Virus record (IMG/VR): IMGVR_UViG_3300020214_000017
Coordinates: 1-54,570 of that record
Source: a virus
Lineage: Duplodnaviria; Caudoviricetes
Direction: 5' to 3' (one strand)
DNA: 54,570 nucleotides
Of this stretch, positions 3 to 37,624 are shown one piece after another. The notes under the pieces are model-generated. The model ran no database searches. It was not told the origin of the DNA and worked only from the letters and a program-made list of their open reading frames with translations. The stretch's first letter is position 1; each line of letters opens with the position of its first letter. Both the position numbers and the translations under genes were made by a program.

Positions 3-155
3 AAAAGGTACTGTCTCGAGTACGCGCTGCAATATCCCCCGGCCGACATGCACGGGGTATGGGCAGGATTGACATCGAGGCAACTGGCGGCCGAGCAGAG
101 AAAAAGGGGAATCAAGCCGACCAAACCGACTTTGGCCCAAATGTGGAACGACTAG
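3..155 (+). CDS. whiB: WhiB-family transcription factor, C-terminal part (5' truncated by window)
   Basis: Frame 3 reads KRYCLEYALQYPPADMHGVWAGLTSRQL...; last Cys plus G[VI]W[GA]G turn; not in ORF track. Confidence 0.8.
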   Translation, partial: KRYCLEYALQYPPADMHGVWAGLTSRQLAAEQRKRGIKPTKPTLAQMWND

Positions 156-11045: not shown

Positions 11046-11074
11046 TTGTCTTATACCATTAGTACCGCTAAGGT
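11046..11074 (+). promoter_or_regulatory. Cassette promoter repeat
   Basis: TTGTCT-17-TAAGGT-6-ATG of a 12-aa uORF. Confidence 0.8.
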
Positions 11075-11111
11075 GAGAGTATGAAAAACAACCAACCAAG
11101 AAAGACTGATA

Positions 11112-11540
11112 ATGTCTAACAACTTATCAGTCAAAGTAAAAACCATAACGCTTGTAAAGGCGTTAGAGGAAGCCCTATCCACCCGCCAAAAGCGTTGGGA
11201 TACGGAAAACAAGCGCAGGGCGGAACACAAAAAGGCAGAGGAAGCATACCATCTCGCCTTATTGAAACTCTTGCGAACAAGCAAGGCAAAAATCACAGAC
11301 GCTAGCGAAAGATATAGTTATCGTCAAAATGATGAAAAAGAAAAAAACATCACCTTTAGTTGTGAAATTGTCTTGCCGAAAACCGCAGTACCAAAGAAGC
11401 CTAAGGACTTCTGCGAGTACCACGAACATCAGTACAAACGCGAAAAAGAGGACATAGAACAGGCTATTCGTATCCTGAAAATGACCGACCAAGAGTATGT
11501 CTCAGCGAGTACATACCGAAGCGTTGCCGAGTATCTGTAA
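11112..11540 (+). CDS. Hypothetical coiled-coil phage protein
   Basis: ORF followed by hairpin. Confidence 0.7.
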   Translation: MSNNLSVKVKTITLVKALEEALSTRQKRWDTENKRRAEHKKAEEAYHLALLKLLRTSKAKITDASERYSYRQNDEKEKNITFSCEIVLPKTAVPKKPKDFCEYHEHQYKREKEDIEQAIRILKMTDQEYVSASTYRSVAEYL

Positions 11541-17637: not shown

Positions 17638-17931
17638 GTGGAAAAGTTGCCGAAACGATATTCGCTGAGGGCTGAAGGTAATCCTTCCATACCTGAGTTC
17701 ACCTGTGAACAGACCTACACGGTTGATACTTGGCAAATCATATTCGCTGACGGGACTGAACTTGTCGCCCAAGTTGGGTGCGCTGAACCCCCAAGCACGG
17801 GAGACGGGCTTCATATTGAAGTTGAGTGGCAGTCTGAAACCCCTGAGTGGGCAAACGACCTTACCGACGAGCAACTTATTAAACTTGTGGCGTTGCGGGG
17901 CGCCTACCACCCCATTTTTGAGGAGTTGTAA
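17638..17931 (+). CDS. Hypothetical protein
   Basis: GTG start with AAGGA SD. Confidence 0.55.
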   Translation: MEKLPKRYSLRAEGNPSIPEFTCEQTYTVDTWQIIFADGTELVAQVGCAEPPSTGDGLHIEVEWQSETPEWANDLTDEQLIKLVALRGAYHPIFEEL

Positions 17932-17938
17932 TCAAAGG

Positions 17939-17967
17939 TTGTCTTATACCATTAGTGCCACTATACT
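17939..17967 (+). promoter_or_regulatory. Cassette promoter repeat
   Basis: TTGTCT-17-TATACT-7-ATG. Confidence 0.8.
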
Positions 17968-17974
17968 GAGTGTT

Positions 17975-18121
17975 ATGAAACGAAAACAATGGAACTCAAT
18001 AGATGCTCAAGCCTTCGCTGATGGCGCACGGACAAAGGCTCAAACCTTTGCCGATAGGCGCAAGCGTGACAATAAACACGCTTGTCGCAAGTGGAAATGG
18101 GGCAGGTTGCGAAATGAGTAA
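17975..18121 (+). CDS. Small basic protein (48 aa)
   Basis: MKRKQWNSIDAQAFADG...DRRKRDNKHACRK. Confidence 0.6.
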   Translation: MKRKQWNSIDAQAFADGARTKAQTFADRRKRDNKHACRKWKWGRLRNE

Positions 18122-19514: not shown

Positions 19515-19678
19515 GAGCGGTCAGCCCGCACGGAACTAGCCCCTTTCCACCACCGTAAGGTATAGCCATAAGAAGGGCAATAGGCCCCGGTTTGCCCAGA
19601 CTTGCGACACGCATTATCGGGACTCTGTTCTTGCGACACGCATCATCGGGACTCCGTTATTTTTATTGTGGGGTGAGG

Positions 19679-19707
19679 TTGTCTTATACCATTAGTGCCG
19701 CTACACT
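19679..19707 (+). promoter_or_regulatory. Cassette promoter repeat
   Basis: TTGTCT-17-TACACT-6-GTCGGGC leader. Confidence 0.8.
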
Positions 19708-19713
19708 TGATAT

Positions 19714-19790
19714 GTCGGGCAACATCATCAACCAACCTCCCCACCCTCCCTCCGCCCGACGGGGGGGGTGGGGGGGAGTATAGGGAGGTC
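19714..19790 (+). ncRNA. Candidate structured leader RNA (pseudoknot), copy 1
   Basis: 5' GTCGGGC is complementary to GCCCGAC (19754-19760) in the loop of a C-rich/G-rich stem. Confidence 0.55.
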
Positions 19791-19801
19791 GGGGGGTGAA
19801 T

Positions 19802-19933
19802 ATGAATCCGTTTGGTTTGACTGACGAGGAAGTGGCACAGGCACTCGAACTGTGTGCGAGCATCTTAAAACAATGCGACGAGTTGCGTAAGACTCTTGCC
19901 GAAGTGCCTGCCGATATTGACGGCAAGGCGTAA
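19802..19933 (+). CDS. Small protein (43 aa)
   Basis: MNPFGLTDEEVAQALELCASILKQCDELRK...; GGGGTG SD; followed by hairpin and T-run. Confidence 0.55.
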   Translation: MNPFGLTDEEVAQALELCASILKQCDELRKTLAEVPADIDGKA

Positions 19934-19941
19934 ATCACCTG

Positions 19942-19980
19942 TAGCGGGTGTCGGTTTGACAGACCGACCCCGCTGTTTTT
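19942..19980 (+). terminator. Intrinsic terminator
   Basis: TAGCGGGTGTCGGTTT...AGACCGACCCCGCTG followed by TTTTT. Confidence 0.65.
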
Positions 19981-20189
19981 CGGCCCCGCTTATTTACAAG
20001 TCTTGCGAAATAACAAGTTCTGAAGATTACCTAACGGGGCAACAAGACGACCTGCGTGGCTGTGGTTCAATAAAACGAGGTATTAGAGGCTTTGTGATTA
20101 TTATTACGGTTTCATTTGACTGTTGTTTTTGCGTCTCTTGCTTGTCTGAGGGTCCCGATGATGTCGGCGATGGGGATTCGTTCATTTAG

Positions 20190-20456
20190 TCAGCCTTGCC
20201 ATATCAAAAAACGGTTATTTTCAACATCTTGTTGCGACCGTATTGTGCCTGCGATAGCCCCGATTGTGCCGGCGGTGAAAGGAGGAATATCGTGAAGTCC
20301 TTTCTCAATTTTGTCGGTGCGCAACTCTCGTTCCAAGCGGGATATGGCTTGTTCAAGTTCTTTGACCCTTCTTTCCAATACGACTTCGCGTGTGGGGGCT
20401 TCAAATCGCCAGTCCCGTAGTTCTTCTAGGTAGGGAATCTCGTCATTTTTGTCCAT
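20190..20456 (-). CDS. Hypothetical coiled-coil protein
   Basis: TATGCT 7 nt upstream of the ATG; divergent from the next cassette. Confidence 0.5.
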   Translation of the reverse strand: MDKNDEIPYLEELRDWRFEAPTREVVLERRVKELEQAISRLERELRTDKIEKGLHDIPPFTAGTIGAIAGTIRSQQDVENNRFLIWQG

Positions 20457-20484
20457 AATACAAAGCATAGCCTATTGGAGGGGG

Positions 20485-20513
20485 TTGTCATATACCATTA
20501 ATACCTGTAAAGT
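20485..20513 (+). promoter_or_regulatory. Cassette promoter repeat (variant)
   Basis: TTGTCA-17-TAAAGT-6-ATG. Confidence 0.75.
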
Positions 20514-20519
20514 AGAAAT

Positions 20520-20720
20520 ATGAATATATTGAATCCAAATTGTTTACTATCTCAGCCCAAACAAATTGTTAGTACTTGGTACAAAACTGCCGTGAAAGAA
20601 TTAGTGGAAACGGGACGGATTCCTGATTCGGATGAGGTGTGGGTAAACCAAAATTATTTAGAGAAAATTATGTTTTTTGCCCAAAAGTTATTTGAAGATA
20701 GTCTACAAATAAAGGCGTAA
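20520..20720 (+). CDS. Hypothetical protein
   Basis: Leaderless first gene. Confidence 0.6.
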   Translation: MNILNPNCLLSQPKQIVSTWYKTAVKELVETGRIPDSDEVWVNQNYLEKIMFFAQKLFEDSLQIKA

Positions 20721-20723
20721 TAA

Positions 20724-21287
20724 GTGAAAAGTTTACCATCGTTGGATGTGTTCAATTTTACAATAATTGAATTGTCGCGCCTAGGTAAGCGAGTGATTTG
20801 CGAGCGAGACCGGGGCCCATCAGATAGTTCGCCGTTTATGATTTGGCAGGGTGCGGGTGAAGATGATGTTCATATTTTTCCTTTGAAATACAATAAAAAT
20901 TCAAGCACAATGCTTAAAAACACATTTTCTGAAGCCTTAACTGAGTTCGGGATGCCCTGTTATATTGCGGTGATAGGTGAGGCATATGTGAAATCCACGA
21001 AGGATATTGAAGAAGTCAAAAACATACAACATGGCGAGTTGCAGGAAAATTTCTTGAATAACTACGATGCCTCTATAAAAGAAGTTATATCCGTTATTTG
21101 CTTTGACCTTGAGGGTCATATTCTTGTAAATATCGTTGGCTATAAATACAACGATACGGGACTCCCCGAGTTTGAGGAAGTGGAAACAACGGTTGTTGAT
21201 TTCAACCTAGAGAGAGATTTGCATAGTCATCAAGGACTTACAATGAATGCTATTAAAGAGTTCATCGCATCGGTTAAAGGGTCATGA
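20724..21287 (+). CDS. Hypothetical protein
   Basis: 187-aa ORF; resembles 49876-50499. Confidence 0.65.
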   Translation: MKSLPSLDVFNFTIIELSRLGKRVICERDRGPSDSSPFMIWQGAGEDDVHIFPLKYNKNSSTMLKNTFSEALTEFGMPCYIAVIGEAYVKSTKDIEEVKNIQHGELQENFLNNYDASIKEVISVICFDLEGHILVNIVGYKYNDTGLPEFEEVETTVVDFNLERDLHSHQGLTMNAIKEFIASVKGS

Positions 21288-21334
21288 GCGGTCATGCTAC
21301 GGGCGGGGGTCCCGGCGATGTCGGCGACGATGGG

Positions 21335-21363
21335 TTGTTTTATACCATTAGTACCGCTAACCT
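21335..21363 (+). promoter_or_regulatory. Cassette promoter repeat
   Basis: TTGTTT-17-TAACCT-7-ATG. Confidence 0.8.
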
Positions 21364-21370
21364 GACAGAT

Positions 21371-21547
21371 ATGGGAAGAAAAGTAAATTTAGACGGGCTA
21401 AATGAGTTTCAAGCCCAAGAAGTTCTTGACCGCTATGAAGATTGGATGCAGGCAAGAATTGAAGATTACCTGAGTGGTCAGTTGACTGATGAGATAACTG
21501 ATGAACAGGCCGAAGCGATTGAAGCATTGCTTGACACCGAGGAGTAA
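21371..21547 (+). CDS. Small acidic protein
   Basis: Leaderless first gene. Confidence 0.6.
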   Translation: MGRKVNLDGLNEFQAQEVLDRYEDWMQARIEDYLSGQLTDEITDEQAEAIEALLDTEE

Positions 21548-21802
21548 ATGAGGCTGTATCACGGAACACCCGTGGCGTTTCCGAAGCGCACGCGCAAAGT
21601 TCACCCTACGCCGACAACACAAGACACGGGCGGTTATTCGTTGGGTTGGCGCATCGCGCATGCGACCAGCGACATAACCGAGGCACAACGATACGGTGCG
21701 GTCGTCTATGAAGTTGCGTTTGACAAGCATACGCAAGAGGGATACAGCGACACCTGCTACTTTAGTGAACATGGATTTCGCATTATCAAGCGAGTACTTT
21801 AG
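21548..21802 (+). CDS. Hypothetical protein with ADP-ribosyltransferase-like YHGT motif
   Basis: MRLYHGT...HATSDITEAQRYG.VVYEV. Confidence 0.45.
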   Translation: MRLYHGTPVAFPKRTRKVHPTPTTQDTGGYSLGWRIAHATSDITEAQRYGAVVYEVAFDKHTQEGYSDTCYFSEHGFRIIKRVL

Positions 21803-21811
21803 GTCGGGGCC

Positions 21812-22102
21812 ATGGCAAGAGACGAACAAATGGACAAAGAAATTAAATACGCCAACATAGAACGCTTAGACGAAGCACAAATGCTCGAATTAAAGAACCT
21901 CTTGCTTGCCATTAAGAATCACTTCGTTGCGTATTACGACGAGGCGTTTGAGGCTGATACTGCGCCCGTGGATGCGTTTGTGTTTTGGGAAGTTACCTTA
22001 ATCCAAGAAGACCTTGCCGAAATGATGCAAAGGTTGGAAGATATTAAGAATATGGCGCCTTGGCATGCCGAGTTGTCGGGCAAGTCACCCCACAATGACT
22101 GA
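21812..22102 (+). CDS. Hypothetical protein
   Basis: ORF in cassette. Confidence 0.6.
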   Translation: MARDEQMDKEIKYANIERLDEAQMLELKNLLLAIKNHFVAYYDEAFEADTAPVDAFVFWEVTLIQEDLAEMMQRLEDIKNMAPWHAELSGKSPHND

Positions 22103-22274
22103 CGCAGAACAATTGTTCGTAGATTATTGGGGTCTGGTAATAGACCAATTAGGTGGCTCGCCGTCTTACGAAGACCTCACTGAACTCACGCACGAAACAC
22201 AGGTGGCTTTATTTGGTTGGTGTCCGTGTGAGGACAACGAAGGCAACGAAAACCCGTATGACGACTGCTCATAA
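22095..22274 (+). CDS. Hypothetical protein
   Basis: HETQV..FGWC.CED...PY.DC. Confidence 0.55.
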   Translation: MTDAEQLFVDYWGLVIDQLGGSPSYEDLTELTHETQVALFGWCPCEDNEGNENPYDDCS

Positions 22275-22283
22275 CACGACCTA

Positions 22284-22559
22284 ATGCGGAAAGAACTGAA
22301 GGCGGTCAATCTCGGGGTATCCGCGGAGTCCCGGCACGCAGGGTGGTCGGTGAAGGTGGAAAGGGGCGACCTAGAACAAGACGGAATTATTTACACGGGT
22401 ATGGTGCGTCGTATAACCCTCATTAACGAAGAAAGCAAGGAAAAATTCGTGGAATCGTTTAGGGGGTCGGGCTGTGCGAACAAAGCCGAGATTTGGTTTA
22501 CGACAAAGACAAACGGGGCGTTTGGTTCTCCACAGGAAACACGATGGATGTGGTCTTAA
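22284..22559 (+). CDS. Hypothetical protein
   Basis: ORF in cassette. Confidence 0.55.
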   Translation: MRKELKAVNLGVSAESRHAGWSVKVERGDLEQDGIIYTGMVRRITLINEESKEKFVESFRGSGCANKAEIWFTTKTNGAFGSPQETRWMWS

Positions 22560-22680
22560 AAACCCGTTTCCACCACCGTAAGATATAGGGGTAAAGCGCG
22601 GATGCCCCTCTTGTTGTGTTAATGGCTTCATTTCTCGCCGGCGTCATTCGGGGCTGCCGCCGAGTGTTTGCGGGCGGGGG

Positions 22681-22709
22681 TTGTGTTATACCATTAGTGC
22701 CACTATACT
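22681..22709 (+). promoter_or_regulatory. Cassette promoter repeat
   Basis: TTGTGT-17-TATACT-6-GTCGGGC leader. Confidence 0.8.
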
Positions 22710-22715
22710 GAAAGA

Positions 22716-22776
22716 GTCGGGCAAACTCAAACCAACCTTCCAGCCCCCCTAAGCCCGACAGGGGGGCGGGAAGGAG
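22716..22776 (+). ncRNA. Candidate structured leader RNA (pseudoknot), copy 2
   Basis: 5' GTCGGGC pairs with loop GCCCGAC (22753-22759); the 3' stem arm overlaps the GGAAGGAG SD. Confidence 0.55.
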
Positions 22777-22781
22777 TGATA

Positions 22782-23075
22782 ATGCGTAGAAAACTAGTGC
22801 TAGTTGCCGTAATGGTCGGCATAGTGTCGGTTGTCGGGTTTATTACACGCTCGGCAAGCCAATTCACTTGCGAAGCCGACCCATATACCGTGACGCAGGG
22901 CGATACGCTCTGGGCTATTGCTGAAACCAAATGCGACGGCAATATCCAAATGGTCGTAGATAACCTAATTAGCACCTATGGCGACCCAATTCATAGCGGA
23001 GATGTTATTTGGTTGCCGACAGAAAGCAAATGCCTGCTAGAAAATCGGGACGGTCACATCTATGATGAGTGTTAA
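22782..23075 (+). CDS. Membrane-anchored LysM domain protein
   Basis: N-terminal TM; YTVTQGDTLWAIA...IHSGDVIWLP. Confidence 0.8.
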   Translation: MRRKLVLVAVMVGIVSVVGFITRSASQFTCEADPYTVTQGDTLWAIAETKCDGNIQMVVDNLISTYGDPIHSGDVIWLPTESKCLLENRDGHIYDEC

Positions 23076-25000
23076 TGAGCCGATTATTTCTTGATAATGA
23101 CACGCTCGCCCTAGATTTCCCCTATGACGCAAGTCAGGTAGCCGAAGTCAAGCAGATTAAGGACTGTAAATGGGATAAGGTCAGGCGGTTATGGCGTTGC
23201 CCCGTTTCAAGCGTTAATGAGGCGCGTGAGTTCGCAACCAAACACGGGTTTGTCATTGATAATGAAGTTCTTGTATTCACCTTGCCACGCAGGTTGAGCG
23301 CACAAGATATAGGCGTATATGAAAAGAACGGGGATATTTACATATCGTTTCCTTACGACCCCGTGATGGTCAGGTCGGTCAAACAGATACCTTCAGTCAC
23401 TTGGGATAAGCGCACGGGGGCGTGGCGAGCCCCGATAACGGCAATTAATGAGGCAATTCAATGGGCTAGCAGGTTTAACAGGACTGTTTCACCCGAAATC
23501 CTTGTGAAAGCAAAGGAAATCAACGCACGACTATCCGAATTGAGCGAAGCAAGTCGTGCGGTGGAAGCAGAAATCGTGATAGGCGATACGGGACTCGAAA
23601 AGTCCTTGTTGCCGTATCAAAAAGCAGGCGTAGCCTACGCAAAACAAGCCAAACGCTGTTTTATTGCCGATGAAATGGGGTTGGGAAAGACCTTGCAAGC
23701 AATTGCGACCCTAGAAATTATTGGTCAATATCCAGCCCTTGTTATGTGTCCACCTAATCTTGTGCTGAATTGGAAAGCCGAGTACGCGAAATGGTTGCCT
23801 CAACGCAAAATAGCGACAGTTTTGGCTGGGAAGGGGCAAAAAGAGTTTCCGGAACGCGGGACCTATGACACGCTTGTAATCGGGTACTCGAACATTTCGT
23901 ATTGGGAATCATTTTTGACTTCCCATTCCGCTTATGTATTAGACGAAAGCCATTATTGCAAGACTTTGACAGCCAAACGAACAAAATCGGCGCGCAAAAT
24001 TGTCGCTTCATCGCCTTCTGGAACGCCCGTGTTGTGCCTGACGGGTACGCCCGTGACGAGTCGTCCCGCTGAATATGTGGCGCAGTTGGATATTTTGGGC
24101 AAAATCAAGGACTTTGGTGGCACTTGGGGCTTCTACCGCAGGTATTGCAACGCATTTCAAGATAAGTATGGTCAGTGGCATTTGGAAGGTGCAAGCAATC
24201 TGGAGGAACTTAACGAAAAATTAAGGTCGGTTTGTTATATCAGACGAACAAAAGAGCAAGTATTGGCTGAATTACCGCCCGTATTTCATCAGGAACTCAC
24301 TCTTGTTGGGGCCCCGGCGGCGATGGTTGAGTATGCCAAAGCCGAGAACGACATTGTTCATTACTTGGTCGAGCGTGCGAAAGAAATTGCCTTGGAACTT
24401 GGGACAAATACTCGTTCAGCAATCGTCATCGCACGGATTAAAGCCGAACACGCACAAAATCTTGTACGACTTTCGGTGCTTCGTCGTCTTGCAGCCAAAG
24501 CAAAAATGGAAAGCATAATTGAGTGGGTTCAACAGCGAACTGCCAACGGGGCCAAAGTTGTGATTGCGGCGCATCATAGAGACATAGTTGACGAACTAGC
24601 AAATCGTTTTGGTGGTTTGAAAATACAGGGCGGTATGTCGGTTGCGGAAGTTGAAAATGTCAAACATAAGTTTCAAACAGACCCGCAACAGCAGGTTATA
24701 ACACTTTCTATTCAGGCAGCCAAAACGGGACACACACTCACTGCGGCGCAAGACATAATTTTTGTTGAGTTGCCTTGGACTCCAGCCGATGTTGACCAAA
24801 CATATTCACGACTACACAGAATGGGGCAAAAAGGGTCGGTTACGGCGACTTACGCATTGTGTGGAGGCACAATAGACGAGAAAATCTATTCCCTGATTGC
24901 CTCAAAACGGACAGTTGTGAACACCGCCGTTGACGGCGGCCCCGGTGCCGATGGCGAGGAAGTGGGTATTCAGTTGATTTTAAGCCTTTTGGACAAATAG
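23075..25000 (+). CDS. SNF2-family helicase with two HARP-like N-terminal repeats
   Basis: ADEMGLGKT, DESH, LTGTP, QTYSRLHRMGQ; FPYD..VKQI..WDK...WR.P twice. Confidence 0.9.
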   Translation: MSRLFLDNDTLALDFPYDASQVAEVKQIKDCKWDKVRRLWRCPVSSVNEAREFATKHGFVIDNEVLVFTLPRRLSAQDIGVYEKNGDIYISFPYDPVMVRSVKQIPSVTWDKRTGAWRAPITAINEAIQWASRFNRTVSPEILVKAKEINARLSELSEASRAVEAEIVIGDTGLEKSLLPYQKAGVAYAKQAKRCFIADEMGLGKTLQAIATLEIIGQYPALVMCPPNLVLNWKAEYAKWLPQRKIATVLAGKGQKEFPERGTYDTLVIGYSNISYWESFLTSHSAYVLDESHYCKTLTAKRTKSARKIVASSPSGTPVLCLTGTPVTSRPAEYVAQLDILGKIKDFGGTWGFYRRYCNAFQDKYGQWHLEGASNLEELNEKLRSVCYIRRTKEQVLAELPPVFHQELTLVGAPAAMVEYAKAENDIVHYLVERAKEIALELGTNTRSAIVIARIKAEHAQNLVRLSVLRRLAAKAKMESIIEWVQQRTANGAKVVIAAHHRDIVDELANRFGGLKIQGGMSVAEVENVKHKFQTDPQQQVITLSIQAAKTGHTLTAAQDIIFVELPWTPADVDQTYSRLHRMGQKGSVTATYALCGGTIDEKIYSLIASKRTVVNTAVDGGPGADGEEVGIQLILSLLDK

Positions 25001-25331: not shown

Positions 25332-25429
25332 CACTTAACTTAAGTGAATATGTTTCCTATTCGCTTATCGTAGCAACTGTCCTAATTGTGGTGTTGGTCA
25401 CCAGATTGGGCAAAAAGCAATAAAGCAAT

Positions 25430-25468
25430 TTCCATGCACGCTTTCGCCCCCCCGAAGCGTGTATGGGA
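25430..25468 (+). terminator. Hairpin, putative terminator
   Basis: TTCCATGCACGCTTT...GAAGCGTGTATGGGA. Confidence 0.5.
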
Positions 25469-25505
25469 TTGTTCTTTTGAATACCTTACGGTAGATTAAA
25501 TTATT

Positions 25506-27955: not shown

Positions 27956-28094
27956 TTTTTCTTCTTCTTCTTTTCTCTCTAATTTCTAGCACATCCAGGA
28001 AGTCATCATCTGCTTCAATCAGGTCTGCTTTTTCCTGGTCGCTGAAACTATTCATGAATTGTTGGACTATTGCTGAAACGGATTTTTCTCTCAT
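27909..28094 (-). CDS. Hypothetical protein
   Basis: ATGA overlap with the giant ORF. Confidence 0.55.
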   Translation of the reverse strand: MREKSVSAIVQQFMNSFSDQEKADLIEADDDFLDVLEIREKRRRRKNVQNSKKQPNNPSMG

Positions 28095-31000
28095 TTAAGT
28101 TTCCCCAATTCATCGGCAAATTCTTTGCCAAGTTCGGGGTATTTTTTGGCAAGTTGATTTACCGTCTCTATCATTTTAGCAAACTTCTTTTTTGCCCTGT
28201 TCTTCTTTTCTTTTGCTTCTTTTTCGGCAAGAGCCATTTGTTCTGGCGTTTCGTCGCCGATGAATGCGGGGCCCCTGCCGAGAAGTTCCAGAAGAACATT
28301 GGCTAGATATTGGAATTCTTGACGTCTATTCACAGCCTGAATCTCTGGTGATAAACCTGATGGTTTGTCGTCGGGCATTCCGTTCTCCCTTATCCATCCG
28401 AAGACCCGAGCGGGAAGGGGAATTGTCGGGTCGAGCAATTCGTTGGTTCGGATGACGGCTTCGGATGTTGCATGAAACGCGAATTGCAATGCTTCAGGGT
28501 CGACGCCCGCTTCCTCGGCAAGGCGCCTGGTTTCGTCAGTTACCTCATATTCGTCAAATTTGATAAAAAAATGTTCGTTAATTTCTTTTTTGATTTGTGT
28601 TTTTTCTGCATCGTTAAGATTCGGGTCGTTGTCGATTCGCTCGAAGACAGAATCTTTAATTTGCTGTCTGTCGCTGATTGTCAAGCCGAGATAACGACGG
28701 TCGCCCCCGATGGCAACTTTGACGAACGCAACGTTTAATATTTGTTCGGGTGTCAATTTGTGACCAAATTTTTCCTGGATTGTAAATCTGTCGAATCGTT
28801 CCTGCCCTGCCTGCATTTGTGCAAAAACGGGCCAGAAAGCGGGGCCGTAAAGCGCGAACGCCCAGAAATTGGCAGTAAATTCTCCATGTCTTGTGAACCC
28901 TTGTCCGAGGAACGAATGTCCTGTCTCGTGGAGCCCGAGTTCCTCGATTGTGGAATCCGTGATTTGCGGTAGGTTCAAACTTCGCATGTTTTTCATCAAA
29001 AAACCTTCGAGTGCGGTTTGTATTACCGAACCATGCAGGCCGGGGTTGTTGTAGGTGCCGTTGCGGAAAGGACCGCCAGGGTTTTGTTGACGCAATAAAG
29101 CGAACATGTCCTTGATTTCCGAATCCGTGATACCTCGGCTTCGGAGCAGGTGGACATATCGTTGCCCCAATCTTTCTGTGAGGTCGTTCAATATTCTGAA
29201 TTTTTCAACACTTTGTTCGAAGAGTTGCTTGACATGGCGTCCGGCGGGCGACGGGGCGAACGTCATGCTGCCGACAATTTCCTGGACTGCCGCGTATTCG
29301 TCTCTGAGGGTTTTGAGGTCTTTGCTTTCGTAATCTGAGCCGATTATTTCATTCATGACACCAAAAATTACGTCATTGGTTCGTGCATCCGATGATTCCA
29401 TTCTCGACAACAAAGTCAAAAGGCTTATTGGCTCTCCGTAGCGGCTGGGGAAACGCGCCTCAATTTCTTTCAGGCGCTGCGGGTCAATCACTCCAATTGT
29501 GGCGACAACGGTTTTATCGTCACCCAGGGTGAAAGTGATTGGTTTGACACCGATGTCCCGTTTATCTCCCCCGCCCCCCTCGATGGCGCCTGGCTTCCTG
29601 AGAACATGATGAAACGCACCGGCGCCCGGGTATTGGTCGGTAAAATTGTCCACCGGGGTACCAAATGCTCGATTAAGCCGGGCTCTTTCGGTGTAGAAAG
29701 CCGCAGCAATATTAACTATTTTTTCGTAGGTCGGGCTACCCATGACCCGAAGCATCGCCACGTCGAGTTCGTCGCCAAGAATGTCGGCAACTTCCGTATC
29801 CAGCGGCGCCAAAATCTTTTTGACACTGTGCCCTTCAATCTTGATGATTGCCATATTTTCACGCGCCAAAGCCGTCGCCTGTTGTACAAGTGCCGCAAGA
29901 AGCGGGTCACTGAAATCAAAATCGCGTCCCTCAAGATTTTCGAATTTATCGACTAGTTTGAACATTCTGCCGTATTTGCCCGTGGGCATCAGGTCAGCGA
30001 TTTCAATGTCGTATCCGAGACTTCGCATTCGGTCGATAAGCCGTGCACCGAATTGGTTTTCTAGATTAACAAGTGGAGATTCAGGGTCCAAACCACGCAT
30101 CGTTGTTTTTTGTGAAAAATTGGGGCGCATGACATCGGTTGGTTGTGTAATCGTTGACGACCTGATACCCCGTACAAATTTTTCGTTAGCCAAGTCGGGT
30201 CGGTATTTTTCCAGCAATCGCATAGCCGCTTCTTCTGCGGCAATTCTTTCGCCTTCATATTTGGTTGACCTAGACCGACTCATCGCGGCACGAACTTTGC
30301 GCCAAGTCGGAGTTGGTACTTCACGTGGCGCGGTTGAAAAAGTGGTCGGAGTAGATTCGATTTGGTAATCTAGGTAATCAGCATTGATGCCCAACACATC
30401 GAGTGGGTCGTTATCAAGTTTTAAATCTAGTTTTTCTCGCCATTTTGCCCGTTCGCCAGGAGGAACGTCTCGGAATATCTCATCTAGGCGCACTCTCACG
30501 TTTTTGGGGTCAGCGGTGCCCCCAAAAAATGCATTCTGTAGGGCATTAATTTCCGTTCGTATAGCATCCATTTCCATTCGCATAGCATCAATGGGCCGTT
30601 TTTTATCGCTAAACATCATGTTGAATATCAGAAGCGAAATATCTTCTACTCGGATTTTTACGTCGCTATCGATAAAGTTGGCTAATTCAATGCTTTCTTC
30701 GCCTTCCAATGTCTTACGAACCTCATATGCAATGTGGAAATCACTTAAGAGTTCTCTGATGGATGTCTGGCGTTGGTAAAGCCTCTTTAAATTTATGTTA
30801 TGAAGCCTTGTTTCTTGTTCAAGTTCATCCGCCAAACGTTCTAATCTTTCAATGTATCGAGGCGGGATAACGGTCTGCCAAGTCTTTTGTTCACGCAATA
30901 TCTCAATGGCCTGCCTCGTCGCCTCGTGGTCAATGGCTTCTTCAAGTGCATTGTTTGAAGAGTTAATCAGGTGAACCACCTTGTCGGCGAGGAGGTTTAA

Positions 31001-34000
31001 CTCTTCTTGAATTTGTCTACGACCTACTACGTCTACTGGTTCGTCAGGGCCCTTGGCCAAGTCAATAGCATCCCATTTTTCTTGCGCCCTAAGAAGAGCA
31101 TCAAAATCTTTTTTAAGAGCGTCTATATGGGATTGAAACATTTCGGGCGTTGCAGCCATAAAATCCAGCCATGACTGTCCGGCTTTTCGCGCCTTAAGAC
31201 GGTTTTCTGTCGTTCTGGGGGCAAATTGCCCAGATGAAAAACCCCTATCTCGGTTCAAATCAACATTGAAGTCTTGGCGAACCTGATTGATGTAAGAAAA
31301 AGACTGCATTGCTCGTGGGGGCATTTCGATGGCGTCATCAGGCAGTAGACGTGCGTCATCTCCGAGATACCATGTTTCTCTTTGCCCTATTGATAATTGA
31401 CCATTGATACGTTCAAGAATTTCTTCTGTTTCCTGGGTGAAAGACTTTTGGTGAGGGATTACCCTGAAGTTCGGGTCATCTATCATCTGCGCCGCTTGTG
31501 CAAATGAAACCTTTTCATCGAGAATTTGGATTACCCTATTGTTCAAAATTTCATACGTTCTGTTGCCATGTTTAATGGCATCAGTTCCCAGCAATATTGG
31601 AATTAACGTAGTCCTGAGGACAGTAGTTGAATTTATGAATTCTGCTAATAGGTCGTTGCGAAGTTTGACAAGTGAAGGAGGGTTGTTTTGTAATCGCCTT
31701 TGATTCTCGATTGCAAAAAATGCTTTAGCCAATCTGAATGCGTGTAATTGAATGTCGCTTGCGGAGCCGGTGGTTATGGATGTTTTGGGGACGATTAGTT
31801 TAAGTGTCCCAGTGTCAACTTCGACACCATACGTTTTAATCATGTCGTTTATCAAACTGTCATAATTTCCGTCAATCCATGCACCCAATGGGAAATTTAT
31901 GTTTGGGAATAGTTTCAGAACAATTTGTTCCACCTGGTTGTTAGTCAACACTCTCGCTTTCGGGTCAAGTAAAATAATCAACCCATTTTTGTTTTGTGCT
32001 GGGTCCTGGTCAGGGCGTTGTTTGTCGACCATTTTGTCGAGGTATCGGAATGGTTCACTGGTTACCTTTGTCAGGTGTTTTTTCACGCCTTCAAGAGCCA
32101 CGGGAACTTCGTCATTCGACCAATTGTCTCCATTGTTGCTTATTCCGTAAAGAACTTTTTCGCCAGCATTTATGCGCTCTTCTAATTCTGTCCGTGTGAT
32201 AAGTCGAGGGGGTGAGTTGAATGCTGCGCTTTCTCGTGCGTATTTTTCGCGTTCTGCGTGTTTGAATAGGTTGACTTCTTCATGGTCGCCAGCCCTTATG
32301 ATGGCTGCCAGCCGCCCTGCCTGTTGTTGATTAAGTCCTTCTGGCGAGTCGAGCGGTCCAATAAACAGGTCAAATTCTTCCATTTTGTTATCGGAAAGCG
32401 ACCCAATAAGTTCTGCCCGTTGGCGGTTTTCATGTGTTGGCCCAAAATTACTGAGTTCGGGGTCGTCGGGTTGGTCGGGTATTGCAAAGGCTGGGAGCCA
32501 ATCGTTATCTTGTCTGTCGACGATTATGGAAAGATTTGACAGATTCAAATTCGAATCATCGAATAGTTGTTTCCAAGCGAATTTTTGTTCTCCGGTAAGT
32601 TCGCGAGGCTCGATGATGTTTGCAAGAATTGTTATGAGGCCCGTGTCGTTATTGTTTGTCGATTCATGCATGCGCGCAAGTGCAAGCCATCCGATGAGTC
32701 GCTGACGGAAATCGTTGTTGGTTTTTAACCCGTAATCTATATCAGCGGCGATAGAGGGCGCAGCCGAAATGCCCTCTTCGTCCTCGTCTATGTTCGGGTC
32801 TTCGAAGAGAGCAGCACGAAGTATGTTTCGTATCTCGACAATTAATTTGTGCCGAAATTCCTTGAAACCGCCCGTGTCATTATCGGCCAAGTTATATTGA
32901 TAATTCATGCGAGGCCATACAATTACCCCGTCCAAAACTGCACTGGGGATGAATATTTCTGTTCCTGCGTGTTGTCTCCACCACAGCGCGGCGTGTTGTT
33001 GTAAAAGTGTTCCTATTCCTCTACCTTTTCCTGTTGCCCCCTCTCCGGCTTCTCTAATCATGAAATTACTGTGTTTAATTTTGATATTGCCTTGTTCGTT
33101 AAGGTAAATCTCACGTTCAAAATATTGGTCTGAACGGTGTTTTTGTCCGGAAGTTGTGAATGATGCTTGTATTTTGAATGAAATAGGGCTGTTATTGGAG
33201 TAGTTCCAAAGTCTCTGACCGCTTTCGTAGCCCTGCAAAACCACGTAAGCACCCTTACTGCCAATTGTTGACTTAAGTGGTTCTACTTCTATTGCCGTAT
33301 CATCGATTGCGATAACTCCGCCTTTGCCAGATTTCGAAGAACCATCAAGCAAATATGCCCGTTGAACTGATTTGAGGGCATCCAGGGTTGTTTGTAAGAC
33401 TTGGCGCAATTCTTTGGTTGCTTCTGTTTGGGGATTGATGATTTCGGGGATGCTAATAAACCCTTCTCGTATTTCTTCGTCAGTCAAATAGTGCCCTGTT
33501 TGTCTTTTGCCAAATTCACCCGTGGCCAATAGGCGCTCAAGGTCGGCCCTAGACATAGTGCCGTCGAATCCAATCCGACTTAGCAAATACGAAAATTTGT
33601 ATAATGGCGAGTATTCGTCAAAGGAGATTTCTTCTTTGTCGTCGCCTATTCGAGAATTTTTTATGAGTAAGTCACGTAATGTGTCAATTGCTCGTCTGGT
33701 GGTTTCAGTATCAAGTGTTCGCCATTTTCGGATTGAATCGACATCATCTTTCCATGGAGTTGTTCTTCCGTATTTATTTTTAATTGCCTTTATGGATTGA
33801 GTCAATCGGCGTTGAACTGATGTTTGGATGTGGTCGGAAACTATTTTGCGTGCCCGTTCGATAAATGGGGCCATGCGTTGTTGGTATTCTTCGCGATTCG
33901 TGGCGACTCGTTCATAGTCCAAAAAGTCCTTCATTTCAGGCGGTGTGATTTCCGTTGTAGATGAAGCCAAGCCACGATTTTGTAAGACGTCTGTGTGGTC

Positions 34001-37000
34001 TTTGCGTTTCTGCATTTCAATGTTCATTTTTTCTTGCTCTTCAGGTGTATAACGAGCAAGTGATGCACCCATTTTGCGCATTTTCTTTGGGACATCAGAG
34101 GACTTGTCAACTGGTCGCATTGCGTCATGTCTTGGGTCGAAAACTTCTTTGTGGGAAAGAGTTACGATGACATTGGTGCCGTTATCTTGTATTTTTGTGA
34201 CTTCGAAATTACCCTGAGTCAAAAATTGACCGTTACCAACATCGATTGCTTTTGCGCCTTTCTCCACACGAATAATTACGGTATTGTCTTTGTGGGGCAT
34301 CGTCGAAGAAACTGCGGTTATCGGCATTGGTATGCTGTCGCCAATATTGAATCCTTCCAAAAAGGTTTCCCTATCAATATTGATGATTCGGAAGAGTTCG
34401 CGTTTGTTTGGTTCTGACGCCTGTACCGCCAGATGAATATCTGCTGCGTCCTTTAATGCTGCTTCAATCGGGGAGCGTTTTGAGATTGGAAGTTTGGCAA
34501 TTTTGCCCGTGACCAAACTGCGCAACATGTCTTTGTTACCTTCGGTTGTGGTGTCATAGATGGGCATATCGTCAACGAATAAACCAAATTGAATTGAGGA
34601 GATGGCGCGTACCATATCTCCGTGATGAGGTCGATTTCTATTGATATAACGTTGCCCTGCTGATTCGCCGAATGATTGTCGCGTTCTTTGGTCCAAGAAC
34701 GAGGCAAATGGCACGCGGTTGTCATAGAAATGATGGTCGCCGATGTGCAATAAACGCGCCCGTGAGCCATAATCAGTTAAGAGTGTTGGGGTTGGATTTG
34801 CGTAGAGTCGTTCGTCTGTATCAATATTTAGGTTGGTGCGAAGTGTCAAACGGCTACGTTCGTTTGGGTCAAAACGTAAATTATCATCTGATGTCGATGA
34901 ATTAAAGCCAGGGCGATGACCGTCTGCTGTTCTTTCAAGTTGCGGTGCCACTATTTTTATATTTGACAAAATTCTGTCAGAAATGTCGTCCACTTCATCT
35001 GAAAACGTCCCCCTAGAGGTTTTCCTGCGTCTCCACATTGATGTGACTGTTTGTGGCTCCGTATTAAGACCCAAAATACGCGCAACAAGTTTTACCGCCG
35101 CATTATTTACTAAAAATGGGTGCTTTTGTCCAAGGCGGGTTGTTACGGAGGCAAAAATCTCAGCGAATCTTTCGGTTGTGTCTGTTTGCCCGTAAGGGGT
35201 TACTACATATGGTTCGGATGAGTTGATGCTGTCTTTGCTGATATCTTTATGACGTCTGCGGTTTGGTTCGTTGCGTCGTCGCTGAGATAATGTGTCGGTC
35301 GCGTGCATTTCTTGTAATTGACCTTCAAGTTCTGTAATAGCGGCTTGAAGTTCGCTATCGGTCATGTTGTCGACGTCAAACAGCCTTTGACCTGTCGGGA
35401 TATTGTCGAAGTTGGGATAGTTACCCCACAGTGCGGGGTCTGCGAACATCGGTTGAGTTCTTCTGTTTTTAAGCATTCTTCTTTGCCCGTTTACGACGTC
35501 ATAACCGTTGTGTCTTCGACCGAAACCCAGGTCTTCACGGCGCACTAATGCATCACGAAAACGTTTATAATGTGGTACTCCACCAGGATAAGTTGTTCCT
35601 ACAGGAGGTTTAAAAAATATGTTTGAAATGCCCCAGTTTTTGGGGTCTCGTTTAAATTGTTCCCATGCCAGCAAGGCATAATTGCGTCGAAGCATATAGT
35701 CCAAATAATGTCCATATTCGTGAATCACGACCGCGGCCTCGCCGATGGTTTCTGATATTGCGTTCGAATTTTCAATATTGAATATTTCTCGTGATGCTTC
35801 GGATGGGTTAAGCATGTATAACAAAAGTTGCCCGTATTGTAAAACCATTTCATTGGTGTGAGGCTGAAAGTAACCACCAAGGGGTGCGTTCATAGGGAAA
35901 TGCCCTGATGCGCCGTTTTCATAGTCGGAGAAAACTTGAGTTCGACCCCGGTTAAGGGGTTCTGTAAAATGCTTTCCTCGCATGGCGCGGCGCGACCATT
36001 CAACACGCAGCAATCGTTCATGTTTTCGTAGTAATTTTTTCCCTATTTCTATTCGTTTGGCAAGCAATGATTTTGATATATGTTGTGGGGATGCGGTGAG
36101 CATTTCAAGGGTTAGGTCTTTATCTTGTCCGACAAAACTGAAAACGCGATGCGGTAGAACTATGACAGGCAATCCATATTCGCGAACAGCGTGAAGAAAT
36201 TCTGGATTTTCTTTTAGGGTTCGTCTAACAAACGCCCGCAGCATGACGCGGTCTTGTCTGACTTCTGATGGAACAGCGTTAGCAATGCCATTCATAAAAA
36301 AATCGTTCATTTCTATGCGATTTGGAAATATTGTTCCTATAAATCCAAAGAGAGACCCTGATTGCTGTGCAAAATCAAGTCTATTTTTTATTTGGTCGTT
36401 AGTAATAACGTTTTGGACACGAATTAAGCGTGGTGGTCCAATAGTCGAATCTTGCGCGTTTTGCACGAAATGCCATTGCCTAGCAACCTCTCGTAGCGCG
36501 ACGGACATCGGGTCACGTGGGTATGAGGCCTTTTGTGAAGCAAAATTAAAATAGAGTTCTAGGATGCTCTGTACGAGGTCAAGGGCTGGGGATTTGTTGG
36601 GTGCCATTATTTCTTGCATATTCATGAAACTTATGGATTGTCCCCCTACTATTAACCGAGCAAGTATGTATTCCATCATGCCTATGGCATCAGGAACAGG
36701 TTTTTCCAAGCCATCGGATGGGTCGATATGCCTCTTAGAAAAAAGTCCATGGTAAAGAAAGCCATTGTTGGCTGCCTGCATTCTTTTGGCTTCGAGGATT
36801 AAATCTTTTATTATTTGCGGAGTGTTGGGGGTTGCCAAAAGTGTGTCAAAAAATTCTTCCTGCCACGCCACAATGTCGTGATGAACATAGGACATCAGGT
36901 TGCCAAAGTCTTCCTGAGCACCAAACAGTTTATTCACCCGTGAGGTGAATAAAGAATAGTTGTTTTCGATGTCTTTATTGAATGCACCAGTTCCGAATTC

Positions 37001-37624
37001 ATAGTCGTACATGGATTCCAATGCGTTAATTTTCATTTGGGGCAAAAGTCGGTATGCTTTGATTGCCTGTTGGTGTAGGTTGAGTGCGTGTTGATAATCT
37101 TCTTCTGTTTTGTATGATTCCCTTGGGACCGTAATGCGTTCATTCAATTCATCTATTTCTTTTGTCGTTAGGGGAACGAATACCCTCGCCAATTCGTCTT
37201 CTGTCGCCTGGCGGCGCCAATCTCTGTCAAGAGGGTCGGGTTTTTTGGCAGGGCGGTCTATGGCGGGCGGTTCTGTGGATGACGCGAGGCCGCGCTGGCG
37301 CCGTGTTTCCTTGGCGACTTGTGTTGGCGTGGTGTCGTCTTTTTCTATGGGCGTTTTGGGGGTGGGTTTACTCAGGTTCATTTGACCCCTGAGAACAACA
37401 GGGCGCATAAATATGGTGCCGTCCTGGACAAAGCCATCGTTGTCGCCATCGAAAGCATTGGGGTCAAATGGCTCTTGGGCGAGTGCTCTCCCTATACCCC
37501 TTCCCACTCCGGCCCCCCCTGCTGCGAGTTTGAGTGTTCGACCGAGGCGGCGGCTGAGACGATTGCCGTCTTTTACATTAATCACAAATTCGATTAATTC
37601 ATTGTTGGGATTCAAATTATCCAC
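28091..37624 (-). CDS. Giant multi-domain (polyvalent) protein: two zincin HExxH, ART-like, GNAT-like, DUF2786-like
   Basis: 3177-aa uninterrupted ORF; DGDNDGFVQDGT, HEYGH..ERFAE, GKGRGIG..DG..VWPR, RKVRAAMSRSRST..GER.AAEEAAMRLLEKY, HETGH. Confidence 0.8.
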   Translation of the reverse strand: MDNLNPNNELIEFVINVKDGNRLSRRLGRTLKLAAGGAGVGRGIGRALAQEPFDPNAFDGDNDGFVQDGTIFMRPVVLRGQMNLSKPTPKTPIEKDDTTPTQVAKETRRQRGLASSTEPPAIDRPAKKPDPLDRDWRRQATEDELARVFVPLTTKEIDELNERITVPRESYKTEEDYQHALNLHQQAIKAYRLLPQMKINALESMYDYEFGTGAFNKDIENNYSLFTSRVNKLFGAQEDFGNLMSYVHHDIVAWQEEFFDTLLATPNTPQIIKDLILEAKRMQAANNGFLYHGLFSKRHIDPSDGLEKPVPDAIGMMEYILARLIVGGQSISFMNMQEIMAPNKSPALDLVQSILELYFNFASQKASYPRDPMSVALREVARQWHFVQNAQDSTIGPPRLIRVQNVITNDQIKNRLDFAQQSGSLFGFIGTIFPNRIEMNDFFMNGIANAVPSEVRQDRVMLRAFVRRTLKENPEFLHAVREYGLPVIVLPHRVFSFVGQDKDLTLEMLTASPQHISKSLLAKRIEIGKKLLRKHERLLRVEWSRRAMRGKHFTEPLNRGRTQVFSDYENGASGHFPMNAPLGGYFQPHTNEMVLQYGQLLLYMLNPSEASREIFNIENSNAISETIGEAAVVIHEYGHYLDYMLRRNYALLAWEQFKRDPKNWGISNIFFKPPVGTTYPGGVPHYKRFRDALVRREDLGFGRRHNGYDVVNGQRRMLKNRRTQPMFADPALWGNYPNFDNIPTGQRLFDVDNMTDSELQAAITELEGQLQEMHATDTLSQRRRNEPNRRRHKDISKDSINSSEPYVVTPYGQTDTTERFAEIFASVTTRLGQKHPFLVNNAAVKLVARILGLNTEPQTVTSMWRRRKTSRGTFSDEVDDISDRILSNIKIVAPQLERTADGHRPGFNSSTSDDNLRFDPNERSRLTLRTNLNIDTDERLYANPTPTLLTDYGSRARLLHIGDHHFYDNRVPFASFLDQRTRQSFGESAGQRYINRNRPHHGDMVRAISSIQFGLFVDDMPIYDTTTEGNKDMLRSLVTGKIAKLPISKRSPIEAALKDAADIHLAVQASEPNKRELFRIINIDRETFLEGFNIGDSIPMPITAVSSTMPHKDNTVIIRVEKGAKAIDVGNGQFLTQGNFEVTKIQDNGTNVIVTLSHKEVFDPRHDAMRPVDKSSDVPKKMRKMGASLARYTPEEQEKMNIEMQKRKDHTDVLQNRGLASSTTEITPPEMKDFLDYERVATNREEYQQRMAPFIERARKIVSDHIQTSVQRRLTQSIKAIKNKYGRTTPWKDDVDSIRKWRTLDTETTRRAIDTLRDLLIKNSRIGDDKEEISFDEYSPLYKFSYLLSRIGFDGTMSRADLERLLATGEFGKRQTGHYLTDEEIREGFISIPEIINPQTEATKELRQVLQTTLDALKSVQRAYLLDGSSKSGKGGVIAIDDTAIEVEPLKSTIGSKGAYVVLQGYESGQRLWNYSNNSPISFKIQASFTTSGQKHRSDQYFEREIYLNEQGNIKIKHSNFMIREAGEGATGKGRGIGTLLQQHAALWWRQHAGTEIFIPSAVLDGVIVWPRMNYQYNLADNDTGGFKEFRHKLIVEIRNILRAALFEDPNIDEDEEGISAAPSIAADIDYGLKTNNDFRQRLIGWLALARMHESTNNNDTGLITILANIIEPRELTGEQKFAWKQLFDDSNLNLSNLSIIVDRQDNDWLPAFAIPDQPDDPELSNFGPTHENRQRAELIGSLSDNKMEEFDLFIGPLDSPEGLNQQQAGRLAAIIRAGDHEEVNLFKHAEREKYARESAAFNSPPRLITRTELEERINAGEKVLYGISNNGDNWSNDEVPVALEGVKKHLTKVTSEPFRYLDKMVDKQRPDQDPAQNKNGLIILLDPKARVLTNNQVEQIVLKLFPNINFPLGAWIDGNYDSLINDMIKTYGVEVDTGTLKLIVPKTSITTGSASDIQLHAFRLAKAFFAIENQRRLQNNPPSLVKLRNDLLAEFINSTTVLRTTLIPILLGTDAIKHGNRTYEILNNRVIQILDEKVSFAQAAQMIDDPNFRVIPHQKSFTQETEEILERINGQLSIGQRETWYLGDDARLLPDDAIEMPPRAMQSFSYINQVRQDFNVDLNRDRGFSSGQFAPRTTENRLKARKAGQSWLDFMAATPEMFQSHIDALKKDFDALLRAQEKWDAIDLAKGPDEPVDVVGRRQIQEELNLLADKVVHLINSSNNALEEAIDHEATRQAIEILREQKTWQTVIPPRYIERLERLADELEQETRLHNINLKRLYQRQTSIRELLSDFHIAYEVRKTLEGEESIELANFIDSDVKIRVEDISLLIFNMMFSDKKRPIDAMRMEMDAIRTEINALQNAFFGGTADPKNVRVRLDEIFRDVPPGERAKWREKLDLKLDNDPLDVLGINADYLDYQIESTPTTFSTAPREVPTPTWRKVRAAMSRSRSTKYEGERIAAEEAAMRLLEKYRPDLANEKFVRGIRSSTITQPTDVMRPNFSQKTTMRGLDPESPLVNLENQFGARLIDRMRSLGYDIEIADLMPTGKYGRMFKLVDKFENLEGRDFDFSDPLLAALVQQATALARENMAIIKIEGHSVKKILAPLDTEVADILGDELDVAMLRVMGSPTYEKIVNIAAAFYTERARLNRAFGTPVDNFTDQYPGAGAFHHVLRKPGAIEGGGGDKRDIGVKPITFTLGDDKTVVATIGVIDPQRLKEIEARFPSRYGEPISLLTLLSRMESSDARTNDVIFGVMNEIIGSDYESKDLKTLRDEYAAVQEIVGSMTFAPSPAGRHVKQLFEQSVEKFRILNDLTERLGQRYVHLLRSRGITDSEIKDMFALLRQQNPGGPFRNGTYNNPGLHGSVIQTALEGFLMKNMRSLNLPQITDSTIEELGLHETGHSFLGQGFTRHGEFTANFWAFALYGPAFWPVFAQMQAGQERFDRFTIQEKFGHKLTPEQILNVAFVKVAIGGDRRYLGLTISDRQQIKDSVFERIDNDPNLNDAEKTQIKKEINEHFFIKFDEYEVTDETRRLAEEAGVDPEALQFAFHATSEAVIRTNELLDPTIPLPARVFGWIRENGMPDDKPSGLSPEIQAVNRRQEFQYLANVLLELLGRGPAFIGDETPEQMALAEKEAKEKKNRAKKKFAKMIETVNQLAKKYPELGKEFADELGKLK

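Follow-up and report, generated by a model that had tools for sequence, protein, structure and literature searches.

A conserved 5' leader RNA of freshwater phages in which the predicted transcript start pairs with a hairpin loop

We describe a leader RNA that is encoded twice in a 54,570-bp stretch of phage DNA, the IMG/VR uncultivated virus genome (UViG) record IMGVR_UViG_3300020214_000017 (37% complete by CheckV; 46.5% G+C), hereafter called the window. In both copies, which begin at positions 19714 and 22716, the first seven nucleotides of the predicted transcript are the exact complement of a heptamer in the loop of a long hairpin that stands directly upstream of an open reading frame (ORF) led by a Shine-Dalgarno (SD) sequence. 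Comparison with related phages indicates that the 5' end very probably pairs with the hairpin loop and that the leader is a conserved RNA structure. Judged from the sequences, the element is a conserved cis-acting 5' leader module that follows a standard early promoter and precedes an SD-led ORF. It is carried by a clade of freshwater phages that encode WhiB and are probably actinophages. The leader probably governs either the lifetime of the message or the efficiency of its translation. Its function could be to sequester the 5' terminus and thereby to shield SD-led messages from 5'-end-dependent decay, an assignment which we make tentatively and hold to be somewhat short of probable.

Results

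The window contains an array of 24 sigma-70-like promoters between 6021 and 26489, 22 of them on the + strand and two on the - strand, with the core GGTTGTC, a conserved 16-nt spacer and TAnnnT (24 matches with up to three mismatches, versus 0.32 expected). These promoters are nearly identical, mostly serve one small gene each and nearly always place an ATG at the transcript start. The ATG lies 6-7 nt past the -10 box in 21 of the 24 copies and 9 nt past it in one, so that these 22 copies should drive leaderless ORFs. In the same register, exactly 6 nt past the -10 box, the remaining two copies carry GTCGGGC instead of an ATG (19714 and 22716). A preliminary description of this DNA had pointed this out and had also located the exact complement, GCCCGAC, in a downstream hairpin loop at 19754 and 22753; both pairs of positions are correct.

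All features of the two leaders lie on the + strand. In copy 1 the promoter (19677..19707; GGTTGTC at 19677-19683, -10 box TACACT at 19702-19707) is followed by the 5' strand of a helix that we call S1 (GUCGGGC, 19714..19720), the first base of which is the predicted +1. A 15-nt linker composed of A and C only and ending in AACCAA (19721..19735) leads into the C-rich 5' arm of a second predicted helix, S2 (19736..19753). The 3' strand of S1 (GCCCGAC, 19754..19760) occupies the hairpin loop and is flush with the G-rich 3' arm of S2 (19761..19778). Copy 2 has the same layout, with the promoter at 22679..22709 (-10 box TATACT, 22704-22709), the 5' strand of S1, GUCGGGC, again at the predicted +1 and 6 nt past the -10 box (22716..22722), a 13-nt A/C-only linker ending in AACCAA (22723..22735), the predicted 5' arm of S2 (22736..22750), two A residues, the 3' strand of S1 in the loop (GCCCGAC, 22753..22759) and, flush with it, the 3' arm of S2 (22760..22774). 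In line with the earlier statement that the stem sequences differ between the copies while pairing is kept, both hairpins fold stably in silico (-36 kcal/mol and a z-score of -1.9 for copy 1; -29 kcal/mol and a z-score of -2.7 for copy 2).

For copy 2, the 3' arm of the hairpin had been stated to cover the SD. This holds, in that the 3' arm of S2 contains six of the eight nucleotides of the SD (GGAAGGAG, 22769-22776; ATG at 22782). In copy 1 the SD is not covered, and SD-like purine tracts (19783..19796; GGGAGG at 19783-19788 and G6 at 19791-19796) stand 3' of the hairpin in the interval before the ATG. Copy 1 precedes, as described before, a 43-aa ORF (19802..19933), which gave no Pfam match and has no homologue in the fetched loci. 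It is followed by a hairpin (-23.6 kcal/mol) and a U-run at 19942..19981, a likely terminator, and leader, ORF and terminator hairpin likely form a self-contained transcription unit of ~270 nt. Copy 2 serves a 97-aa LysM-domain protein with a hydrophobic N-terminus (22782..23075; Pfam LysM, E = 3.4e-05), next to which lies a SNF2 helicase gene (23069-25000, + strand).

An ATG at 19712-19714 in copy 1, two bases before the usual register, opens a frame of 23 codons; we rejected it as a leaderless ORF, as neither copy 2 nor any of the relatives has this frame. A third GTCGGGCAA, found at 22075, was put down to chance, since it lies inside an ORF and has neither promoter nor hairpin. Three such heptamer matches in the window were also reached by 3 of 100 shuffles. 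The case that the leader arrangement exceeds chance is one that rests on the relatives.

No near-identical DNA was found among isolated phages. With the SNF2 helicase beside copy 2 as query, we collected 80 IMG/VR loci and 80 metagenome loci (relatives are cited below by labels such as G006 or L207). Relatives with a 75-93% identical helicase have promoter arrays of their own on the same plan (GGTTG-20 nt-TAnnnT), with leaderless ATGs and a different spacer sequence, and yielded 13 further distinct leaders, giving a total of 15 from ~10 contig groups. The first homologous leaders (G003, G006) were read by eye among promoter copies without a following ATG. A promoter-anchored descriptor then gave 21 matches with a score of at least 17 in 187 loci (1.99 Mb, some overlapping; 607 promoter-like sites), compared to one match for the reversed 5' word, none for the same 5' word and six for a 'complement' control that was contaminated by a word reading the same when reversed. 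As had been suggested earlier, a covariance model was also used for scanning. Built from five sequences and describing the hairpin only, without the 5'-to-loop pairing, it recovered the known copies and one new copy in G006, which has a promoter with a deviant -35 element and carries a new S1 (AUCAGGC/GCCUGAU).

At ~60% helicase identity no convincing leader was seen, and none was found in G001, G004, G005 and G010. G004, G005 and G010, which are relatives of this degree, use short, unstructured, A/C-rich SD leaders behind the same kind of promoter. Weak matches of model R2 (13.6-15.7 bits) in L024, L028, L029, L252, L253 and L255, likewise at ~60% helicase identity, were rejected; those that were read are start-codon-adjacent hairpins without 5'-to-loop complementarity. 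Model R1, made from the two window copies only, proved too specific, and its sole extra match in the window (25405-25475, E = 0.056) follows a small ORF and has the look of a terminator hairpin.

In scans of IMG/VR for exact patterns, neither the promoter core nor the first leader pattern was matched. A looser GTCGGGC..ACCAA..GCCCGAC scan gave 84 stretches, of which only two, the G006/G007 copy, have the hairpin, while the other 82 look like chance. A scan with an 18-mer of the G003 type returned four stretches, namely G003 itself and three unrelated coding or other sequences. A generic descriptor without promoter anchor performed no better than reversed-sequence controls (571 vs 578; 103 vs 87), and its matches were not counted as evidence.

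S1 is supported by covariation. Eight different 5' words occur among the 15 distinct copies (GUCGGGC, GUCAGGC, AUCAGGC, GUCGCGC, GUCGCAC, GUCACC, CGCCCGC and CGCCAGC), and each is exactly reverse-complemented in its own loop. Non-cognate combinations of 5' word and loop matched in 2 of 162 cases, both within stem arms rather than loops. In a MAFFT alignment of five sequences 35 of 35 S1 cells are paired, and three of the seven pairs are changed on both sides. A second alignment of seven distinct sequences was made by the covariance model, which does not contain S1 and hence was not fitted to it; here 49 of 49 cells are paired and four of the seven pairs are changed on both sides. S2 is 80% paired in the seven-sequence alignment, with five of 13 pairs double-changed, and 98.8% of its cells are paired in an alignment of the G003 group (six of 17 pairs double-changed). 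In the G003 lineage the 5' arm holds the G-run and the 3' arm the C-run, opposite to the window. For the structure as a whole, the observed pairing and covariation were reached by none of 500 shuffles, and slid controls were 49-59% paired. MAFFT failed to align all 14 sequences structurally, and the CGCCCGC and GUCACC types were handled separately or by script. G-U pairs recur in S2; the complementary strand would have A-C mismatches at these places, so the folding RNA is the sense strand.

Thus, the pseudoknot between 5' end and loop put forward in the preliminary description is supported by covariation in both helices. As in an H-type pseudoknot, loop bases pair outside the hairpin; the outside strand is here the 5' tail, which makes the leader the mirror of the classical H-type.

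A scan that was blind to S1 gave a concordant result. In the 1.99 Mb there are 611 promoter-like sites, and at 27 distinct ones a hairpin with 10 bp or more starts 14-34 nt past the -10 box. At 14 of the 17 hairpin sites without an ATG at +1, which are the leaders described here, the 5' end is complementary to the loop over at least 6 nt, compared to 0 of the 10 leaderless hairpin sites.

Across the family, S1 measures 6-7 bp (duplex energy, -8 to -14 kcal/mol), and in all 15 distinct copies it begins 6, 7 or 8 nt past the -10 box. Its start coincides with the leaderless-ATG register of the same phage, or falls one base later when S1 begins with C, in which case an A precedes it; this A agrees with PMC11532794, where RNA polymerase is noted to prefer a purine at +1. 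When the start is placed at the leaderless-ATG position, from which it is inferred, 0-1 unpaired nucleotides precede S1 in 15 of 15 copies. Relative to this start, the earlier claim that the leader begins at the predicted +1 finds support. The linker measures 11-16 nt, is almost purely A/C and always contains an ACCAA-like run; its length shows no clear trend with stem length. S2 is a GC-rich helix of 10-17 bp (-19 to -40 kcal/mol), whose 5' arm is separated from the S1 loop strand by 1-3 nt, with no nucleotide between loop strand and 3' arm in 14 of the 15 copies. GUC at the 5' end together with GAC at the loop end is kept in 10 of 15. The start codon follows S2 after a purine-rich interval of 7-25 nt in every copy, and the SD stands directly at the foot of S2 or partly within it, 0-12 nt from the structure. 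S2 overlaps part of the SD in copy 2, in G006b and in leaders of the G003 type. About half of the copies (copy 1, G006a, L210, L207a, L207b and G002) have the SD wholly outside S2. The whole leader measures ~65 nt.

The leader matches no Rfam family. Rfam 15 gave no match in the whole window at gathering thresholds and, at E values up to 10 on 19600-22900, returned hairpin-like noise only, such as miRNA precursors; in this relaxed search Flavi_TBFV_SL6 scored 21.5 bits against a threshold of 38.3. This agrees with the earlier remark that no known family could be assigned. The alignments show no stretch of unpaired positions that is conserved, save for the A/C composition and the ACCAA-like run. 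The riboswitch-like role considered earlier was accordingly abandoned: a conserved unpaired core is missing, the leaders precede unrelated genes, and in relatives the same LysM gene is expressed in four modes, including without the leader. The alternative of a translational switch survived in part, in that occlusion of the SD holds for copy 2 and is not conserved across the family. An intrinsic terminator or attenuator was rejected because no U-run follows S2 (AGUAUAGGG follows in copy 1 and AGUGAUA in copy 2), and a terminator scan flagged S2 in neither window copy. An operator of the T4 gene 32 type would not fit the mere 7-25 purine-rich nucleotides between S2 and the start codon, and no gene for a single-stranded-DNA-binding protein follows the leaders. 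A G-quadruplex in the G-rich arm was dismissed, because in the G003 type it is the opposite arm that has the G-run, and four such runs are not present. A literature search found no prior description of such a leader (supplementary files lay outside the search).

The genes downstream of the leaders are unrelated to each other and comprise the LysM protein, peptides of 43-45 aa, small Cys-rich proteins, an 83-aa ORF and a helicase. Several of these ORFs are small with hydrophobic N-termini, namely a 44-45-aa MKSQRIALALALLA type found in four lineages and LysM. The LysM gene carries the pseudoknot leader in the window and L204, is leaderless from its own promoter in G006, follows a short plain SD leader in L227 and is coupled to an upstream ORF in L207, L209, G002 and L020-L022. 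Conversely, the gene behind the promoter at 17944, which is without a leader in the window, has a pseudoknot leader in G006. The four LysM expression modes argue for an interchangeable leader module and against a riboswitch. Within L207, two different S1 sequences occur. In L225 (5391-5420) the leader precedes a four-codon ORF, the stop of which overlaps the helicase start (UAAUG), and the helicase would be reached by re-initiation.

The host is probably actinobacterial, since WhiB-like proteins above the Pfam cut-off are encoded in all five records searched, i.e. the window and four relatives. The WhiB family is described as confined to Actinobacteria and their phages (PMC13013590). In the window, a WhiB-like domain above the cut-off lies at 43797-44003 on the - strand, and a second, weak match at 6-83 (+ strand) is cut by the window end. 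The TAnnnT -10 boxes and the frequent leaderless mRNAs would also fit Actinobacteria; for mycobacteria, ~25% of transcripts are reported to be leaderless (PMC11532794). By helicase, the nearest isolated phages are Arthrobacter phages with 31-35% identity, while the search for a host via genome contigs gave only four distant matches (34-39% identity).

Further features were noted in and around the array. The 16-nt spacer between -35 and -10 is conserved within each phage and different between related phages, suggesting either concerted evolution or recognition of the spacer by a phage-specific factor. The promoter copy at 11051-11130 drives a mini-ORF of 12 codons, and the stop codon of this mini-ORF overlaps the ATG that comes next (TGATAATG), as if a leaderless mini-cistron were translationally coupled to the following ORF. 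Between the preceding ORF and the promoter of copy 1, at 19600-19660, lie 29-nt direct repeats in tandem (cttgcgacacgcatYatcgggactcYgtt), which fold no better than shuffled sequence. A 3177-aa ORF on the - strand (28091-37624) gave no Pfam match at E <= 0.001. In L092 (G003; 17921-18100) and in G004 (~19352) a promoter of this type has behind it, in place of an ORF, a conserved structured RNA of ~130 nt. It begins with UAGGUAGGGAGACUGAAGAGUGUCCC, ends in G003 with a terminator-like hairpin and a U-run, gave Rfam noise only and has no copy in the window; we regard it as a candidate phage small RNA. A second repeated intergenic motif, (C)TTTCCRCCACCGT followed by an A-rich tail, occurs in L017 (1735-5329) and L022 (968-5155) and once in the window (~2550-2590), and may represent another class of regulatory site.

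Discussion

Protection of the 5' end is the function which, from the sequence comparison, would fit the leader anatomy best. Base pairing at the 5' terminus and 5' stem-loops stabilise mRNAs. In the leader, the first 6-7 nucleotides of the transcript (S1) would pair with the 3' portion of the loop that closes the 10-17-bp hairpin, so that a 5' tail, and not a 3' tail, engages the loop. As the loop strand of S1 runs directly into the 3' arm of S2, S1 could stack on S2, and the deep groove of 6-7 bp can be bridged by 1-2 nt in pseudoknots. In such a stack the first, triphosphate-bearing nucleotide would come to lie at the helical junction. [quoted passage not shown] In the phage, most other transcripts would have their 5' end at the start codon, where a ribosome occupies it, and the few SD-led messages would otherwise expose a free 5' end to these enzymes. 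The bulky structure near the SD would also set the rate of initiation, and the leader would act as an interchangeable module for expression level rather than as a sensor for one gene. Sequestration of the 5' end would agree with how strictly S1 is conserved and with where it starts (+1 or +2).

In a more far-reaching form, the pseudoknot would be a structural substitute for a cap that buries the triphosphate at the coaxial junction and blocks both pyrophosphate removal and entry of RNase J/E. We consider this version rather unlikely. If true, it would be a bacterial-virus counterpart of exoribonuclease-resistant RNAs (xrRNAs) and would give a long life to chosen SD-led messages in an otherwise leaderless transcriptome.

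Several points weigh against a protective role. The transcript start is itself deduced from the promoter register, and a start at +1 could just reflect an economical leader. In addition, some copies were found by requiring S1 complementarity, so that the 100% pairing is partly a matter of ascertainment, which the S1-blind checks offset. Both helices would have to coexist, with the 11-16-nt linker spanning the whole of the stacked S1 and S2. The plain, unstructured SD leaders of G004, G005 and G010 argue that 5' protection is no general need of leadered mRNAs in these phages. Moreover, S2 reaches up to the SD in every copy and extends into it in copy 2, in G006b and in the G003 type, which a translational role would explain equally well.

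Such a translational role is the main rival, although the two are not exclusive. Here S2 would sit at the foot of the SD, locked in place by S1, and act as a throttle that lowers or delays ribosome loading for proteins that have to be kept at low levels, for example small membrane proteins or LysM proteins. With promoter copies this nearly identical, dosage would have to be set after transcription, and the proximity of S2 to the start codon in all 15 copies, the overlap with the SD (six of eight nucleotides in copy 2), the high stability of S2 and the small downstream ORFs with hydrophobic N-termini all agree with it. We nevertheless judge it doubtful, given that about half of the copies leave the SD fully outside S2, that the L225 copy precedes a helicase gene and others precede soluble-looking Zn-finger-like ORFs, and that an occluding hairpin alone would have no need of S1, which is the more strictly kept of the two helices (49 of 49 cells). 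Less probable again is that a phage or host RNA-binding protein or a small ligand recognises the pseudoknot. The leader pseudoknots of T4 gene 32 and rpsO are described as protein operators (PMC3014915), and the GUC/GAC ends of S1 kept in two thirds of the copies as well as the ACCAA-like run in every linker could mark a binding site. Yet S1 and S2 vary freely in sequence between genomes and, as in L207 with its two S1, within a genome; a block of conserved unpaired nucleotides is missing, no riboswitch or operator family of Rfam matches, and unrelated genes are served of which one lacks the leader in relatives.

Finally, the heptamers form an inverted repeat beside a promoter and might be operator half-sites or a cruciform in the DNA, with the RNA fold being incidental; half-sites of a co-evolving dimeric protein would covary too. 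We regard this as very improbable: the spacing of the half-sites varies from 23 to 33 nt, the L207 genome has two different heptamer pairs, the recurrent G-U pairs of S2 work only in sense-strand RNA, and the element is invariably found past +1 on the transcribed strand, with SD and ATG after it. Protection of the 5' end is the reading that we prefer, at the tentative strength given above.

Among known systems, 5'-terminal stem-loop stabilisers (E. coli ompA and papA; T7 phi10 leaders) protect mRNAs from 5'-end-dependent decay. The leader would resemble them in that pairing sets in ~0-2 nt from the (here predicted) 5' end, upstream of an SD-led gene; it differs in that those are simple hairpins, whereas here the 5' end pairs with a loop across an 11-16-nt linker and the hairpin is much longer. 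In flavivirus xrRNAs a three-way junction forms a ring around the 5' end, and they act inside a longer RNA against Xrn1. The likeness is one of analogy only, in that the 5' end of the element would be held in a pseudoknot which a 5'-to-3' exonuclease is predicted not to engage. Here there is no junction, the element stands at the presumed transcript start, and the enzyme would be RNase J or RppH.

The leader of T4/T2 gene 32 also has a pseudoknot on the 5' side of a phage mRNA, with an unstructured tract and then the ribosome binding site downstream of it. The transcripts of gene 32 are reported to be the most stable T4 mRNAs, and their pseudoknot, 67 nt upstream of the AUG, to nucleate cooperative binding of gp32 on an A+U-rich tract (PMC3014915). 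Unlike this structure, which is tied to one autoregulated gene, the leader serves varying genes, pairs its 5' tail with the loop, has its A/C-only tract inside the pseudoknot and places the AUG 7-25 nt from the structure. For E. coli rpsO (S15), the same source describes a pseudoknot in the translational operator beside the ribosome binding site (PMC3014915). That pseudoknot includes SD and AUG and is the autoregulatory protein site of one ribosomal protein gene, whereas the genes served here are unrelated and the leader has no known binder. What sets the leader apart from all of these systems is the pairing of the 5' tail with the loop, the start at +1, the coupling to a repeated promoter and the use as a swappable module.

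In conclusion, the leader adds a compact (~65 nt) and strongly covarying RNA motif from uncultured freshwater phages that is missing from Rfam, with the unusual topology that the very first nucleotides of the transcript pair with a hairpin loop. Together, the related phages provide a natural series of leaderless, plain SD-led and pseudoknot-led messages behind the same promoter, which permits a direct comparison of leader type with mRNA stability and translation in bacteria rich in leaderless mRNAs. If the leader does protect the 5' end, it would be a portable mRNA stabiliser for actinobacterial expression systems and would offer a handle on 5'-end-dependent decay in Actinobacteria.

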